Shown here piece after piece: positions 6,001-15,000 of a DNA stretch of 64,000 bases. Location of the stretch: assembly GCA_965200555.1 (NCBI GenBank), contig OZ241365.1, positions 1,832,442-1,896,441 of the forward strand, in the 5' to 3' direction. Each line of letters starts with the position of its first letter. The first letter of the stretch is position 1. The position numbers are program-made. The DNA comes from Dehalococcoidia bacterium. GTDB lineage: Bacteria; Chloroflexota; Dehalococcoidia; UBA2979.

Positions 6001-9000
6001 TCACCGCCGACCCGCTCGCGCCGGACTTCGGGCGGGCCGAGCCGTGCGAGTGCGTGCGCCGCGAGGGCGAAGCCGAGCGCCGCGCGCGGCTGCTGCGCTA
6101 CTCGCGTCTCGGCGCGCTGGAGCGCTTCACGTTCGGCACGCTGCTGCCGCACGGCCGCTCCGCCGACCCCGCCGCGCGCGAACGCTACGCCGCCGCCGTC
6201 GAGGCCGCGCGGCGCTTCGCCGAGCGGCCCGAGGGCTGGCTGCTGATCGGCGGCACGGCGGGCTGCGGCAAGACGCACCTCGCCGCCGCCGTCGCCAACC
6301 GCGCCATCGAGCTCGGCGCGCCCGCGCTCTACCTGCCCGTCGCCGACCTGCTCGACGCGCTGCGCGCCTCCTACGGCGAGGACGCGGCGACGCCCTACGA
6401 GCGGCTCGGCGAGCAGCTGCGGTCGGCGGCGCTGGTCGTGCTCGACGACCTCGACGGCTACGCGCCCACGCCGTGGGCGCGCGAGCAGTTCGCGCGGCTG
6501 ACGGCGCACCGCTTCCACGCGGCGCTGCCGACGGTGTTCGTGAGCGCGCAGCCGCCCGAGGCGCTGGGCGACGAGCGGCTGGCGGCGCGGCTGTCCGATC
6601 CGGCGCTCACGCAGCAGCTGGTGCTGGAACAGCCCTCGCGCGAACGCTACGCCGCCGTCGGCGCGATGACGCGCGAGCGGCTGGCCGAGTTCGCCTTCGA
6701 GCGCTTCGAGCCGTCCGGCAAGGGGCTGCGCGGCGAGGCGCGGCGCAACCTCGAGGGCGCCTACCGGCTGGCCCGCCGCTGGGCCGAACGGCCCGAGGGC
6801 TGGCTGGTGCTGCTCGGCCCCAACGGCGCCGGCAAGACCCACCTCGCCGCGGCCGTCGCCCACTACCGCCTCGAGCAGGGCGGCGCGGCGGCGTTCGCCA
6901 CCGTGCCCGACCTGCTCGACGAGCTGCGCGCGACCTTCGGCCCGGACGCGGACGAGCGCTTCGGCGCGCTCTTCGGGCGGCTGCGCGAGGTCGAGGTGCT
7001 GGTGCTCGACGACTTCGGCGCGCACCAGTCGAGCCCCTGGGCGCAGGAAAAGCTGTACCAGCTGATCAACCACCGCCACCTCGCGGGCCTGCCCTCGGTG
7101 GTGACGAGCAACCTCGAACTGGCGAAGATCGAGCCGCGCATCGCCTCGCGGCTCGGCGACCTCCGGCGCTCGGCGGTCTACGAGCTGACCGCCCCCGACT
7201 ACCGCGTCGGGGGCTGAGGCGCGCCCCGGCCGGGACGAGGGATCAGCCCGCCGCGGCGGGGCGGGGGGCGGCGCCCTCCTGCCACGAGGCGCCGCCGGGG
7301 CCGTACTCGCGCTTCCAGATCGGCGCCGTCTCCTTGATGCGGTCGACGGCGCGCAGGGCGGCGGCGAAGGCGTCGGCGCGGTGCGCGGCGGAGACCGCGA
7401 CGACGAGCGAGACCTCGCCGACCTCCAGCGCGCCGACGCGGTGGTGGGCGGCGATGCGGTGCACCTCGCGATCGGCGTACTCGGCCAGCACCTCGCCGCA
7501 GGCGGCCTCGATGCTGCGCGCGGCCATCGAGGCGTAGGCCTCGTACTCGAGGCGGACGACGGCGCGCCCCTCGTGGTGGTCGCGGACCACGCCCTCGAAC
7601 AGCACCACGGCCCCGCTCGCCGGCGTGGCGACGAGGCCGCGCAGCGCCTCGCGGTCGAGCGGGGCCTCGGTGACGAGGCAGCGCGGCGCGGCGCCGTCCG
7701 GCTCCACTACGCCCGGGGGCGCATCGGGGCCGGTGGGCGCGCCGCCGGAGATGGGCTGGATCAGCGCCACCTCGTCGCCGTCCGCGACGGCGGCCTCGGC
7801 GTCGAGGCAATATTCCTCGTTGACGGCGACGGCGGCGCCGGGCAGGTGCGGGCGGAGGGCGGGATGCGCGGCTTCGAGGCGCCGCCTGAGGGCGGCGACG
7901 GTGACGCGGTCGCCGTCGAACTCCTCGACGAGGTCGCCGCCCATCAGCTCGCGCAGCTGGGCGAAGAGCCGCACCCGCACCCGCACGCCGCGCCGCCTCC
8001 CCGCGCCGCCGCCGGACGCGGCGCCCCCTCGCAGTATACGCCGCGCGGCGATCGGGGCCGGCGGCGAGGGCGCTCAGTCCTCGCAGACCTCGGGGTGGCG
8101 GCGCAGCCAGTCGAGGATCGCCTCGGCGGCCCACCGGTGGCCCTGCGGCGTCCAGTGGGCGTCGTGCGGCCACTGGGCCGCCCGCGGCTCGCCCCCGCGG
8201 CTCGCGATCCAGTCGTGCTGGTGGATCACGGGGACGCCGAGGGGTCCGGCCATGCCGCCGAGGATCTCGTTCCAGCGGCTCGACGCGGGCCCCGTGACGT
8301 GCGCGGACAGCACGGCGAGCGCGGCGCCGTCGCGGTCGGCGCGGCGCGCGAACGCGGCGAGGGACCACTCCGCGAATGCGAGGGCCTCGGCGAAGACAGG
8401 CGGCGGCTCCGCGGAGCGGAGCAACTCGAAACCCTCGCCCGCCGCCGGGTCCCAGCCGCCGGCGATCCACCCGTAGCCGGGGCGGGCGGCCAGCGCCGCG
8501 GCGCGCTCGGCGAGCGTCGGGAACGCCGGTTCCGGGAACAGGGCGCGCCGCTTGGCGTCGAGCCAGCGCGCGAGCAGCGAGCGTTCGGTCAGCGCCCGCG
8601 CCGCGCGGTCGCGCCAGCCGCCGGACGGCTCCGGCGCGCCGGACCAGGGCAGCGCGTTCGCAGCGTAGTCCGGGTGCGGCGGGCGCAGCCGCACGCCGCC
8701 GTCGGCGGTGCGTTCCGGGTAGGCGTAGTGCATCCGCGCCGGATCCCAGCCCAGGCTCATCGCACTCAGCACGGCGGAATTGTCCGCGAAGTCGTTGTCG
8801 ACGGCGACGAGCACCACGAGGTTGGGCCGCAGCGGGCGCGCGTACTCGTCGTAGTACGGCAGCTGATTGGCCTGCCCCGTGGCCAGGCGCCCCCATGCCG
8901 AGGCGGTCACGTCCAGCCCGGGCAACGCGGCGGCGGCCAGCGCCTCGAGGCGCACGTGCAGCTTGTCGGCGATCGGGACCTCGAGCGCCTCGACGAACGA

Positions 9001-12000: not shown

Positions 12001-15000
12001 CAGTCGAGGATCGCCTCGGCGGCCCACTGGTGGCCTTGCGGGGACCAGTGGTGGTCGTGCCGCCAGTGGGAGTCCTCGATGCGCCCGCCGGAGTGCGCGA
12101 TCCAGTCGGGCTGGCTGATCACGGGGATGCCGAGGGGTTCGGCCATGCTCAGCAGGAGCTCCGACTGCGGGGTGTGCGCGTGCCCGACTTCCTGGTGCGA
12201 CGCCAGGATCGTCAGCGCGGCGCCGTCGCGGTCGGCGCGCCGCCTGAATTCGGCGAGGGCCCACTCCATGTCGGCGAGCGCCTCGGCGAACACGGGCGGC
12301 GGGTCCTCCACGAACAGCAGCCCGTCGAGCTCCTGGGCGACCGTCGGCTGCCAGCCGTCGAGGATCCACCCGTAGCCGGGGAGGGCGGCCGTCAGCGCGA
12401 CCCGCTCGGGAAGCGGAGGCCGCGTGTCGGGCGGGATCAGCGCCCGCCGCTTGCCGTCGAGCCAGGCGGCGAACAGCGAGCGCTTCGCCAGGCCCCGGCC
12501 GAGGGCCTCGTACCAGCGTTCGGACGCGGGCCGCGGCAGGTCCCAGCCCGGCAGGTCGCCGGACGGCTGGTAGTCCGGGTGCGGCGGACGCAGCCGGACG
12601 GCGCCGTCCGCGGCGCGTTCCGGGTAGGCGTAGGGCATCCGCGCGGGATCCCAGCCCAGGCGCATCGCCCTCAGCACGGCGGAGTTGTCCGCGAAGTCGT
12701 TGTCGACGGCGACGAGCACCACGAGGTTGGGCCGCAGCTGCCGCACGTACTCGTCGTAGTACGGCAGCTGGTTGGCCTGCCCGGTGGCCAGGCGCCCCCA
12801 CGCCGAGGCGGTGACGTCCAGCCCGGGCAGCGCGGCGGCGGCCAGCGCCTCGAGGCGCACCTGCAGCTTGTCCTCGATCGGGACCTCGATCGCTTCGACG
12901 AACGAGTCGCCGATCACGGCGACGTGGCAGCTGGCCGCGGCGCGCTCGGGGCCGGGCGGCTCGCGGTCGAGGAAACCCAGGCTGTTCGCGCGCTGCGCGG
13001 TCCAGAAGTCGAGGCCGTTGGTGCGGCGCACCTCGGCGTGCGGCTCGTAGAGCACGCCCACGCCCGGCACGAAGCGCAGGGGCAGCGGCAGGGCGGCGAA
13101 GGCGCCCGACAGCCGCAGGTACGCCTCGCCCGCGACCGCGACCGCCACGAGGCCGGCGAGGATCAGAGCCGCGTTCCAGCCCGCGAGGCGGGCCAGGCGG
13201 ACGAACTTCCGCGAGGGGGTGCGCGGGGTCATGCTCGCGCCCGATCATCGCAGACCTCGGGGTGGCGGCGCAGCCAGTCGAGCAGCGCCTCGGCGGTCCA
13301 CCGGTGGCCTTGCGGGGACCAGTGGTTGTCGTCCGGGAAGCGGGCGTCCTCGATGCGCCGGCCGCGGTCGTCGATCCAGCGGTGCCAGTTGATCACGGGG
13401 ATGCCGATCTCGCCGGCGACCTCGCGCAGGAGTCCGTCCTTGCGGCTCTCCGGACCCGGCATGTTGTGCAGGACGACTACCGAGGCGCCGTCGCGGTCCG
13501 CGAGCCGTCGGAATTCGGCAAGGGCCCACCGGGTGAATTCGAGGGCTTCGGCGAAGACGGGCGGGGGCTGCTCACGGTCCAGCAGCAGGCTGAGCAGGGC
13601 CGCGTCGGTCGTGGGCCGCCAGCCGCGGGCGACGTACCCGTAACCGGGGCGAGCGCTCACCGCCTCCAGACGCCCGGCGAGCGGGGGCGCCGGCTCCGTC
13701 TCCCGCAGGTCCCGCAGCCGGGCGTCCACCCAGCGCGCGAACAGCGAGCGTTCGGCCAGCTCACGGGCGGCGGCCTCGTGCGGTCGCCCGGACGCCGGAC
13801 GCTCCTCGATCTCCGGGGCCCAGGGCAGCGCGCTCGCCGCGTAGTCCGGGTCGGGCGGGCGCAGGCGCACGCCGCCGTCCCCGGCGCGCGCGGGGAAGGC
13901 GTAGGGCGTGCGGTCGGGGTCCCAGCCCGCGTAGTCCATCGCCGCCAGCGCCGCGGAGTTGCCGAGGAAGTCGTTGCGGGTGAAGACCAGCACCAGCAGG
14001 TTGGGGCGCAGCGGCCGCGCGTACTCGTCGTGGAACGGGAGCTGGTTGGACTGCGCGGTGCCGAAGCGCCCCCAGGCGGAGGTCGTGACGTCCAGCTCCG
14101 GCAGCGCGGCGGCGGCGAGCGCCTCGAGGCGCACGTGGAACTTGTCGGCGATCGCGACCTCTTTGGCCTCGACGAACGAGTCGCCGAAGACGGCGACGTG
14201 GCAGCTGGCCGCGGCGCGAGCGGGATCGGGCGGCTCGCGGTCGAGGAAGCCGAGGCTGTTGGCGCGCTGGATCGTCCAGTAGTCGGAGCCGTTGGTGTGG
14301 CGCACCTCGGAGTGCGGCTCGTAGAGCACGCCCACGCCCTCCACGAAGCGCGAGGTCGAGCCGGGCGCGACGAAGGCGCCCGACAGCCGCAGCCACGCCT
14401 CGCCCGCGAGCGCGATCAGCGCGAGGCCGGCGAGCACCAGCGCCGCGTTCCAGCCCGCGAGCCGCGCCAGCCGAACGAATATTCGGGGGGGGGGGGGGGT
14501 GATATGTCGAGTCATGGCCGTCGCGCTTCCGGCGAGCCCTCGCCGCCATTGCGGGCGCGGAGATGCTGGAGGAAGCGGTAGCGAGCCAGCCATCGGCCGA
14601 CCTCGACCGTCCCTTCCGCGGTACCGTCGCGCACGGCCTGCGCCATGCTTTCGGAGGATCGTGCGTACGCCCGCTCGCAGAGGCGCACATAGCGTTGGAG
14701 CGCTGCGATCTTCCGCTCGCTGGACCGCTGCCGGATGCGGAATGCGTCGCGACCCGTCGTAGCGGCCACTGCGCCCCCCAAGCGTCGGACTCCGCAACTC
14801 CCGCCGTCCGCGACACTACACTCTACAGCCCGATGGTCGTGCGGCGCCGCCCGGCGGGCTGGCGGCAACAGGCGCGGAACGAGGACGCGGCGATGGCCGG
14901 GGCGCGGACCGGGGTGCGGGAGGCGCTGCGGCGCGGGGCGGCGGACGCGCTGCTGCCGCAGCGCTGCATCGAGTGCGGGGGGTTCGGCGCGGCGCTGCAC

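Follow-up and report, generated by a model that had tools for sequence, protein, structure and literature searches.

The window analysed here, 64,000 nucleotides (nt) of a Dehalococcoidia bacterium of the phylum Chloroflexota (assembly GCA_965200555.1, contig OZ241365.1, forward-strand positions 1,832,442 to 1,896,441), has a G+C content of about 75% throughout and carries eight paralogous genes for SGNH-type proteins, all on the minus strand and arranged in two tandem arrays of five (array 1) and three genes (array 2). Four of these genes begin with a long tract of cytosines (poly-C), and this study concerns the part that such tracts may play in switching the genes on and off. An earlier note on this DNA had described five head-to-tail minus-strand paralogs confined to 8074-14515; all five open reading frames (ORFs) were found at their claimed coordinates, and three further paralogs lie at 49850-53634.

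Array 1 runs from c4 (13229..14515; 428 amino acids, aa), its first SGNH gene, through c3 (11952..13232; 426 aa), c2 (10718..11959; 413 aa) and c5 (9330..10649; 439 aa) to c1 (8074..9337), the last, in which an in-frame ATG at 9303 gives a protein of 409 aa (8074-9303); its proteins span 409-439 aa. Pairwise tblastn comparisons among the five gave E values of 1e-130 to 1e-170 at 60-70% identity, and alignment gave 66-72%, in keeping with the 60-80% previously estimated by eye (computed range 60-72% at the aa level). G+C at third codon positions (GC3) is 0.87-0.97 for c1, c2, c3 and c4, the pattern of real genes, and c5 was not listed by the GC3 filter. The long antisense ORFs that had been rejected as pseudo-ORFs do exist and are a by-product of the 75% G+C. 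Array 2 consists of c8 (52351..53634; 427 aa), which starts 4 nt after the stop of a carbamoyltransferase gene, c7 (51111..52358) and c6 (49850..51115; 421 aa).

The genes are closely packed. The stop of c4 and the start of c3 share an ATGA overlap (13229-13232), and the junctions c3/c2 and c8/c7 are GTGACTAG overlaps, with the GTG of c2 lying inside the last codons of c3 (11952-11959). The same GTGACTAG overlap recurs at 9330-9337, between c5 and c1, where the GTG in the overlap (9337) does not share the frame of c1, whose in-frame ATG (9303) lies 26 nt past the c5 stop. A 68-nt gap separates c2 from c5. The earlier statement that every junction is an overlap holds at c4/c3 and c3/c2, fails at c2/c5 and misleads at c5/c1, where the overlapping start is not in frame. 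A scan of 7900-15000, of limited value at 75% G+C, showed neither an intrinsic terminator nor a sigma-70-like promoter inside array 1, and Rfam at gathering threshold gave no riboswitch or leader RNA near the arrays, the only matches in the window being three tRNAs. Paralogs that are 74-82% identical carry exact common runs of up to 94 nt; these are suggestive of gene conversion between paralogs, which we do not claim as shown, since the most conserved segments would in part produce such runs anyway.

The end of c7 deserves separate mention. It has no in-frame stop at the conserved C-terminus, and its frame stays open through 49059 (ORF 49059-52358, minus strand), 683 codons further. At the c7/c6 junction (51111-51127) the sequence CGGGCGCG-GCATGACG is one base short of the ...RARA*/ATGA cassette, and a 1-nt indel, either a real frameshift or an assembly error, is the probable cause of the missing stop. 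A 1-nt loss resembling this junction occurs near position 2574 of one related locus (L009).

Poly-C tracts in four SGNH genes

Only five homopolymers of at least 8 nt occur in the 64 kb, and four of them are coding-strand C runs at the same position in four paralogs, in codons 6-11, between codon 5 and the membrane anchor. They are C15 in c4 (14485-14499), C18 in c2 (11926-11943) and C15 in c7 (52328-52342), all on the minus strand and in frame, and C14 following ACA in c1 (9306-9319, minus strand), which is out of frame (+1). A first-order Markov model predicts 1.7e-4 runs of at least 14 nt in the window. Each tract is embedded in a conserved AT-rich cassette, (A/G)TGACT(A/C)GACATATCA-Cn-GAAT(G/A)TTCGTTCGG. 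The in-frame tracts of c2, c4 and c7 encode PPPP(P)-containing leaders that end in R. The proline codons in the tracts are all CCC, and elsewhere in the window 50% of proline codons are CCG and 47% CCC; a preliminary listing of proline runs, which took three of the paralog ranges in a wrong frame, contained none made up purely of CCC.

Neither c4 nor c7 contains an internal ATG behind the tract, and for c4 this means that expression depends on the tract frame. The remaining paralogs differ in their leaders: c3 (MTPRTPSRKFVR) and c5 (Arg-rich) have no tract, and the leader of c6 resembles a decayed one.

The fifth homopolymer of the window is a C10 (36520-36529) in codons 7-10 of an unrelated 576-aa protein (36501..38231, plus strand) that has a signal-peptide-like N-terminus (MFTLLSTPPPRGHKHYLGLAAWLGALLLGAALI...), AT-rich tract flanks and no Pfam match. 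This gene is a candidate for a second kind of phase-variable surface gene.

Tract polymorphism in related genomes

We compared the window with orthologous loci in other metagenome assemblies whose flanks are 92-99% identical. Tract lengths in these assemblies are 6, 13, 14, 15, 16, 21 and 22 nt. The c4 orthologs alone range from C6 (L007/L008) through C15 (window) and C16 (L006) to C22 (L005). For c2, the C18 of the window is matched by an out-of-frame C14 in the 99.3%-identical copy of L009, and for c1, a C14 that is out of frame in both the window and L005 contrasts with an in-frame C21 in L060. Further alleles are C15 (L004) and C13 (L061). Altogether, 6 of 14 alleles are in frame and 8 are out of frame.

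Apart from the window, eight independent assemblies of different samples have a tract at this site, and one also occurs in another phylum: in a Binatia metagenome-assembled genome (MAG) of 61% G+C (51% aa identity), the first of three tandem copies has an in-frame C14 leader (MTRILPPPPPRIL). Across 447 kb of related loci, 8 of the 12 homopolymers of at least 9 nt sit 11-20 nt from the N-terminus of a paralog. Interrupted or decayed tracts are seen in L006 (CCCCCCTCCC), in the c6 leader and in L001 (MNNPPRRILRV), as would be expected if a switch were becoming locked. Among 47 distant relatives, of 25-47% identity, the gene is single-copy and has no tract. The SGNH genes of the window and their orthologs thus combine sequence features that mark contingency loci, namely a long uninterrupted repeat in the 5' coding region, a polymorphic repeat length between conserved flanks, and both in-frame and out-of-frame alleles.

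Two observations were made alongside. In L009 (1-3685, corresponding to window 10710-14514), c2 directly adjoins c4-c3, with the join falling precisely on the repeated leader cassette; a real rearrangement and a repeat-induced mis-join are both possible, and we set this locus aside as evidence for rearrangement. In a Vicinamibacterales MAG (L002, 15988-17739, plus strand), a 583-aa protein carries a C15 (16008-16022) in codons 7-11 (MRRSGDHPPPPPGF...); its gene lies inside a GT4/GT2 glycosyltransferase cluster, 5 kb from an SGNH homolog.

Fold, active site and topology of the SGNH proteins

The AlphaFold model of c2 (predicted local distance difference test score, pLDDT, 92) has the three-layer alpha/beta/alpha SGNH fold, with an additional N-terminal beta region. 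Conservation was counted over 85 homologs. G112 and S114 (block I), D183, H387 and W388 are invariant in 85 of 85, and G150 (block II), N182 (block III) and D385 are at least 90% conserved. Absence of an SGNH fold or of the catalytic Ser/His would have overturned the earlier assignment; the fold is confidently predicted, the serine and histidine are invariant and the aspartate nearly so. Blocks I, III and V, which had been reported for the five copies of array 1, are present in all of them as GDS(F/V), NDF and H/D-D-x-H-W. Block I reads GDS in seven of the eight window copies and GGS in c8.

Some 200 residues separate block III from block V, as the note had it, and this stretch includes a helical insertion of about 150 residues. 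The paralogs differ mainly in two loops of the insertion (A2 columns ~235-265 and 318-333), where model confidence is lowest. In all eight copies, 2-8 K/R and zero D/E precede a hydrophobic 19-mer, which bears out the single N-terminal transmembrane helix proposed before. This pattern of charge and hydrophobicity points to an N-in signal anchor with the catalytic domain facing outward, and indicates for each protein a short positive cytoplasmic leader, one signal-anchor helix and a predicted catalytic domain outside the membrane. C106 and C411, an invariant cysteine pair in the 85 homologs, would be compatible with such an extracytoplasmic location.

Family profiles matched the proteins below their cut-offs in every comparison with SGNH and AlgX-type families by hidden Markov models: Pfam Lipase_GDSL_2 gave 16-31 bits (cut-off 32.9), Lipase_GDSL 13-16 bits (23.6) and ALGX 11-22 bits (26.5), the last confined to the D-x-H-W segment. 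A profile of the family itself found no match among PDB sequences at E <= 1. In structural comparison, many acetyl-xylan or carbohydrate esterases and lipases were matched, and the best match was CgnD, the SGNH hydrolase of the crocagin pathway. A plasmid homolog of 35% identity is named 'SGNH/GDSL hydrolase family protein' by the Prokaryotic Genome Annotation Pipeline (PGAP). The family has 279 cluster representatives at E <= 1e-30 among 1.84 billion. No relative was found on IMG/VR viral contigs, hence there is no evidence of phage carriage, and the SGNH proteins had no match in PADLOC, hence they are not a catalogued defence protein. As judged from the model, the proteins are an uncharacterised subfamily of SGNH-fold serine enzymes.

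Gene neighbourhoods and a possible link to glycans

Array 2 forms the 3' part of an operon whose genes lie on one strand in the order SxtJ-like, SxtK-like, carbamoyltransferase, c8, c7, c6. The SxtJ-like membrane protein (55747..56172, minus strand; 141 aa) reaches 21.9 bits with PF19588, against a cut-off of 24.4, over the full profile length, and its L057 ortholog gives an unmarked SxtJ match. The SxtK-like small membrane protein (55566..55736, minus strand; 56 aa) matches DUF5989 with 74 bits (cut-off 27), and the NodU/CmcH-type O-carbamoyltransferase (53638..55554, minus strand; 638 aa) matches Carbam_trans_N with 348 and Carbam_trans_C with 241 bits. The syntenic loci L057 and L058 contain the same operon with seven SGNH copies, versus three in the window; their arrays have GTGA-overlap junctions and the leader VSAERPARGRLARALR. 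Homologs of the carbamoyltransferase, SxtJ and SxtK also stand beside an SGNH gene in the distant loci L013, L015, L021, L028 and L050. Conserved neighbours of the distant relatives include GT4 glycosyltransferases (10 loci), a carbamoyltransferase (11 loci, by tblastn; often accompanied by SxtJ and SxtK homologs), an ABC-2/ABC-ATPase pair of the Wzm/Wzt type, and methyltransferases. No MBOAT/AT3 acyl-translocase was found among the annotated neighbours of either array or in the annotated conserved clusters, in which not every ORF was scanned.

On one side the operon is bordered by McrBC and ispD genes, on the other by cysE-like and cysS genes; the CysS protein has its best matches in Chloroflexota and Dehalococcoidia MAGs, in keeping with the host. 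The McrC and McrB-like AAA_5 GTPase genes (56220-59118, minus strand) lie directly upstream of the SxtJ/SxtK/carbamoyltransferase genes, and L058 has an additional 689-aa ORF between McrC and SxtJ. Beyond ispD lies a gene for a Schlafen/AlbA_2 and HATPase_c_4 protein (60538-62250, plus strand).

Array 1 has comF-pfkB-glyA-rpsF-ssb on one side and moaDE, dnaC-like, dnaD-like and dnaB genes on the other. Upstream of c4, an 85-aa ORF (14512..14769, minus strand) overlaps the c4 ATG with its TGA (ATGA); it is 84% conserved in L005 and has no family match. Relatives have an extra ORF of 139-142 aa at this place (MHDLATEGVVLSDG...HRHVFDP...; L005 4757-5460), which is deleted in the window and truncated in L006 and likewise matches no family. 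A toxin-antitoxin-like identity for these small ORFs was considered and dropped for want of any family match.

Three further genes near array 1 are recorded for completeness. Between dnaB and the dnaD-like gene, a 416-aa protein (3864-5114, plus strand) matches, in fused form, PDC-M24A (residues 1-132) and PDC-M24B (164-407), two PADLOC candidate defence proteins, and also DUF6978 and DUF1828. A 471-aa protein (5802-7217, plus strand) with two tandem DnaC/IstB-like AAA+ modules adjoins the DnaD-like (DnaB_2) protein (5048-5797), an unusual duplicated helicase-loader arrangement. Between glyA and rpsF, a 171-aa ORF (18002-18517, plus strand) encodes an 11-residue repeat (TELKASNDTRF / AKLEASNDTRF) present about eight times in tandem, with a hydrophobic helix at the C-terminus; overlapping frames are likewise open here.

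Discussion

We consider it fairly probable that the SGNH arrays are slipped-strand contingency genes whose products alter ester or carbamate substituents of a surface glycan; this chemistry we infer, and the enzymes may hydrolyse or transfer. The poly-C tracts would lengthen and shorten through slipped-strand mispairing during replication, and each tracted gene would switch independently of the others, yielding protein when in frame and none or little when out of frame. Four independent switches could then produce up to 16 expression combinations from one clone. Most of the genes are probably coupled in translation to the one before them by the ATGA or GTGACTAG overlap, in which case the tract would act on translation within one polycistronic messenger RNA. 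Array copy number (three versus seven) and the exchange of leader cassettes may add slower layers of variation.

The enzymes would act on ester-type groups (O-acyl or O-carbamoyl) of an exported surface glycan by adding, moving or removing them, and the variable loops of the helical insertion would probably set acceptor specificity. Because the gene set of array 2 is the same as sxtIJKL of saxitoxin biosynthesis, the substituent handled may be a carbamoyl group. The failure to find an MBOAT/AT3 donor system among the annotated neighbours favours hydrolysis, while the SxtJ/SxtK membrane proteins leave room for a relay. The likely benefit would be stochastic variation of the surface in the face of phages or other surface-recognising agents. 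Variable modification of a surface polymer had already been suggested for this locus, and it gains indirect support from the distant relatives in GT4, Wzm/Wzt and carbamoyltransferase clusters; the mechanism, poly-C tracts and copy-number change, was absent from that proposal, as was the operon of SxtJ, SxtK and carbamoyltransferase genes. The earlier note had stressed the overlapping gene junctions, whereas the notable feature appears to us to be the combination of poly-C switches and copy-number change in an SxtL-like, carbamoyltransferase-linked family.

In a more far-reaching version, which we think unlikely, SxtJ, SxtK, the carbamoyltransferase and the SGNH proteins would form a hitherto unrecognised trans-membrane O-carbamoylation (or acyl-relay) system, comparable to PatA/PatB, AlgI/J/X or DltB/D. 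The cytoplasmic carbamoyltransferase would load the group, the small membrane proteins would pass it outward, and each SGNH paralog would attach it at, or remove it from, a position of its own on the surface glycan. Multiplied, acceptor-specific paralogs with independent poly-C switches would then amount to a combinatorial glycan code for a free-living bacterium.

Several points weigh against contingency-controlled glycan editing. At the level of the enzymes, the block III Asn is replaced by Asp in c7 (DDF) and by Gly in c8 (GDF), block V (D385-x-H387-W388) has the one-residue spacing of AlgX/AlgJ-like proteins and not the canonical D-x-x-H, and no Pfam or NCBIfam model matches the SGNH proteins at cut-off. 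The closest seven-copy arrays, L057 and L058, have zero poly-C tracts, which shows that the system can do without one. Array 1 has only housekeeping genes around it, and its link to glycans runs through its paralogy with array 2 and through the distant relatives. Homopolymers of 14-22 nt are poorly resolved by both long and short reads, and individual lengths and frames may be wrong. Variation in tract length is known here between assemblies; reversibility and heterogeneity within one population are presumed. Most out-of-frame alleles retain an internal ATG (GAATGTTC), from which some protein may be made. Finally, the substrate, too, is a putative one.

The internal ATG leads to the alternative that survives best, which we nevertheless hold to be unlikely: that expression is largely independent of frame, through RNA polymerase slippage or internal initiation, and that the tract tunes expression level without any on/off effect. 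An in-frame ATG directly follows the tract, as GAATG, in 10 of 12 tabulated alleles and also in L007/L008, gene callers picked it in several assemblies, and transcriptional slippage on long homopolymers is established for A/T runs. Against this, c4 and c7, both in frame, have ATA in place of ATG, no Shine-Dalgarno-like sequence precedes the internal ATG, and ribosomes coupled from the upstream gene would traverse it in the wrong frame.

There is little chance, in our view, that the tract simply encodes a functional poly-proline leader that is constitutively made, for instance to impose an EF-P-dependent pause before membrane insertion. Three of the four window tracts are indeed in frame and encode PPPP(P), and the Binatia homolog has a comparable MTR..PPPPPR leader. 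A coding function is difficult to reconcile with alleles of which 8 of 14 are out of frame and whose lengths, from 6 to 22, are not multiples of 3 apart, or with the exclusive use of CCC in a genome that uses CCG and CCC about equally; moreover, the other paralogs and the closest seven-copy arrays work without such a leader.

About equally improbable is that the observed lengths and frames are sequencing or assembly artefacts concealing genes that are all stable and in frame. Long homopolymers are error-prone on all platforms, a 1-nt indel is likely at c7/c6 and another in L009, and L009 as a whole resembles a repeat-induced chimeric join. Against this, eight independent assemblies other than the window show a tract at the identical position, as does a different phylum, and lengths as far apart as 6, 15 and 22, or 14 and 21, differ by more than the typical error of 1-2 nt. 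From what is established about slipped-strand mispairing, a real tract of at least 14 nt would be hypermutable whatever its exact length.

The same low probability applies, we believe, to a module of SxtJ, SxtK, carbamoyltransferase and SGNH proteins that tailors a small-molecule natural product in the style of saxitoxin or crocagin, and not a surface glycan. No polyketide synthase, nonribosomal peptide synthetase or precursor of a RiPP, a peptide made on ribosomes and modified after translation, lies near the arrays, whose flanks hold cysS, cysE-like, McrBC, ispD, comF, glyA and moaDE genes. The distant relatives have GT4 glycosyltransferases and Wzm/Wzt-type exporters as their neighbours, an outward-facing catalytic domain is predicted, and CgnD has no similarity at the sequence level. 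Least probable is a nutritional role, in which the paralogs, as carbohydrate esterases or lipases, would deacetylate polymers from the environment and would have expanded for substrate breadth: many fold matches are acetyl-xylan or carbohydrate esterases and lipases, but all copies are membrane-anchored, there is no link to glycoside hydrolases or sugar uptake genes, the genes are arranged in an operon with a carbamoyltransferase, and hypermutable N-terminal tracts are unusual in catabolic enzymes.

Phase variation through simple repeats is documented mainly in host-adapted pathogens. If surface editing by switchable SGNH genes is the right explanation, the same design is present in uncultured soil-type Chloroflexota and in a Binatia MAG, on a multiplied and uncharacterised enzyme family, which suggests that free-living bacteria also use stochastic surface editing, probably against phages. 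It would furthermore supply a genomic context, made up of glycan clusters, an outward-facing SGNH domain and expansion in copy number, for SxtJ/SxtK/SxtL-type genes, which many bacteria have alongside carbamoyltransferases and which have so far lacked an explanation. For metagenomics the tracts carry a warning: gene callers mis-start or split genes at the tract, and several database entries begin at an internal Met. We found no literature on phase-variable SGNH proteins, on DUF5989 or on homopolymeric tracts in Chloroflexi.

Comparison with known systems

The likeness to Ape/PatB-type O-acetyl enzymes that had been drawn earlier is not borne out. The group of PatB, Ape1, OatA/OafB C-domains, AlgX/AlgJ and DltD differs in that our proteins have no MBOAT/AT3 partner among annotated neighbours, stay below the Pfam thresholds, show a Ser...Asp-x-His order that is not the AlgX permutation, and have the extra N-terminal beta region and the helical insertion of about 150 residues. 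With the family match below threshold and the partner not found, membership in the PatB, Ape or AlgX families is unsupported. CgnD (PDB 8a2n), a 289-residue chain that was purified and assayed as a soluble enzyme and is a slow leader peptidase (PMC10070186), is likewise different, having no detectable sequence similarity with the SGNH paralogs. The product of the crocagin pathway is likewise carbamoylated, which we take as a lead and not as a test.

A closer counterpart in gene content is the saxitoxin cluster, in which carbamoylation is the task of SxtI together with SxtJ and SxtK, and decarbamoylation is proposed for the GDSL protein SxtL (PMC2679770, PMC2885083); sxtI, sxtJ, sxtK and sxtL have one phylogenetic origin (PMC2684587). 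The sizes there (PMC2679770) and here are 612 versus 638 aa for the carbamoyltransferase, 134 versus 141 aa for SxtJ, 54 versus 56 aa for SxtK and 426 versus 409-439 aa for the GDSL protein. The genes here differ from sxtIJKL in their order, J-K-I-L(xN), in the three- to seven-fold multiplication of the SGNH gene and in the absence of toxin core genes. The SGNH family may be called SxtL-like by its gene content and sizes, not by sequence comparison with SxtL (ABI75102). None of 240 listed homologs is named SxtL, and the names of homologs and cluster members are only 'hypothetical' or 'GDSL-like'.

The nearest parallel for the switch itself is found in pathogens such as Campylobacter jejuni, Neisseria and Haemophilus, which have phase-variable poly-G/C tracts in genes for the modification of surface glycans. 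Our loci differ from these contingency loci in their host, a free-living, uncultured, 75%-G+C Chloroflexota bacterium, in the nature of the switchable genes, which encode paralogs of a single enzyme and form tandem arrays with coupled translation, and in tracts of 14-22 nt compared with the usual 8-13, with switching here presumed from sequence. They are alike in placing a long, pure homopolymer in the first codons of genes for envelope-modifying enzymes, in a tract length that is polymorphic between close relatives with mixed frames, and in having several switchable genes per genome. One published signature of phase variation is that mutable repeats are concentrated close to N-termini (PMC3315296). 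What the two arrays appear to present is a known kind of switch in an unexpected host, placed on paralog arrays that are linked to a carbamoyltransferase operon.

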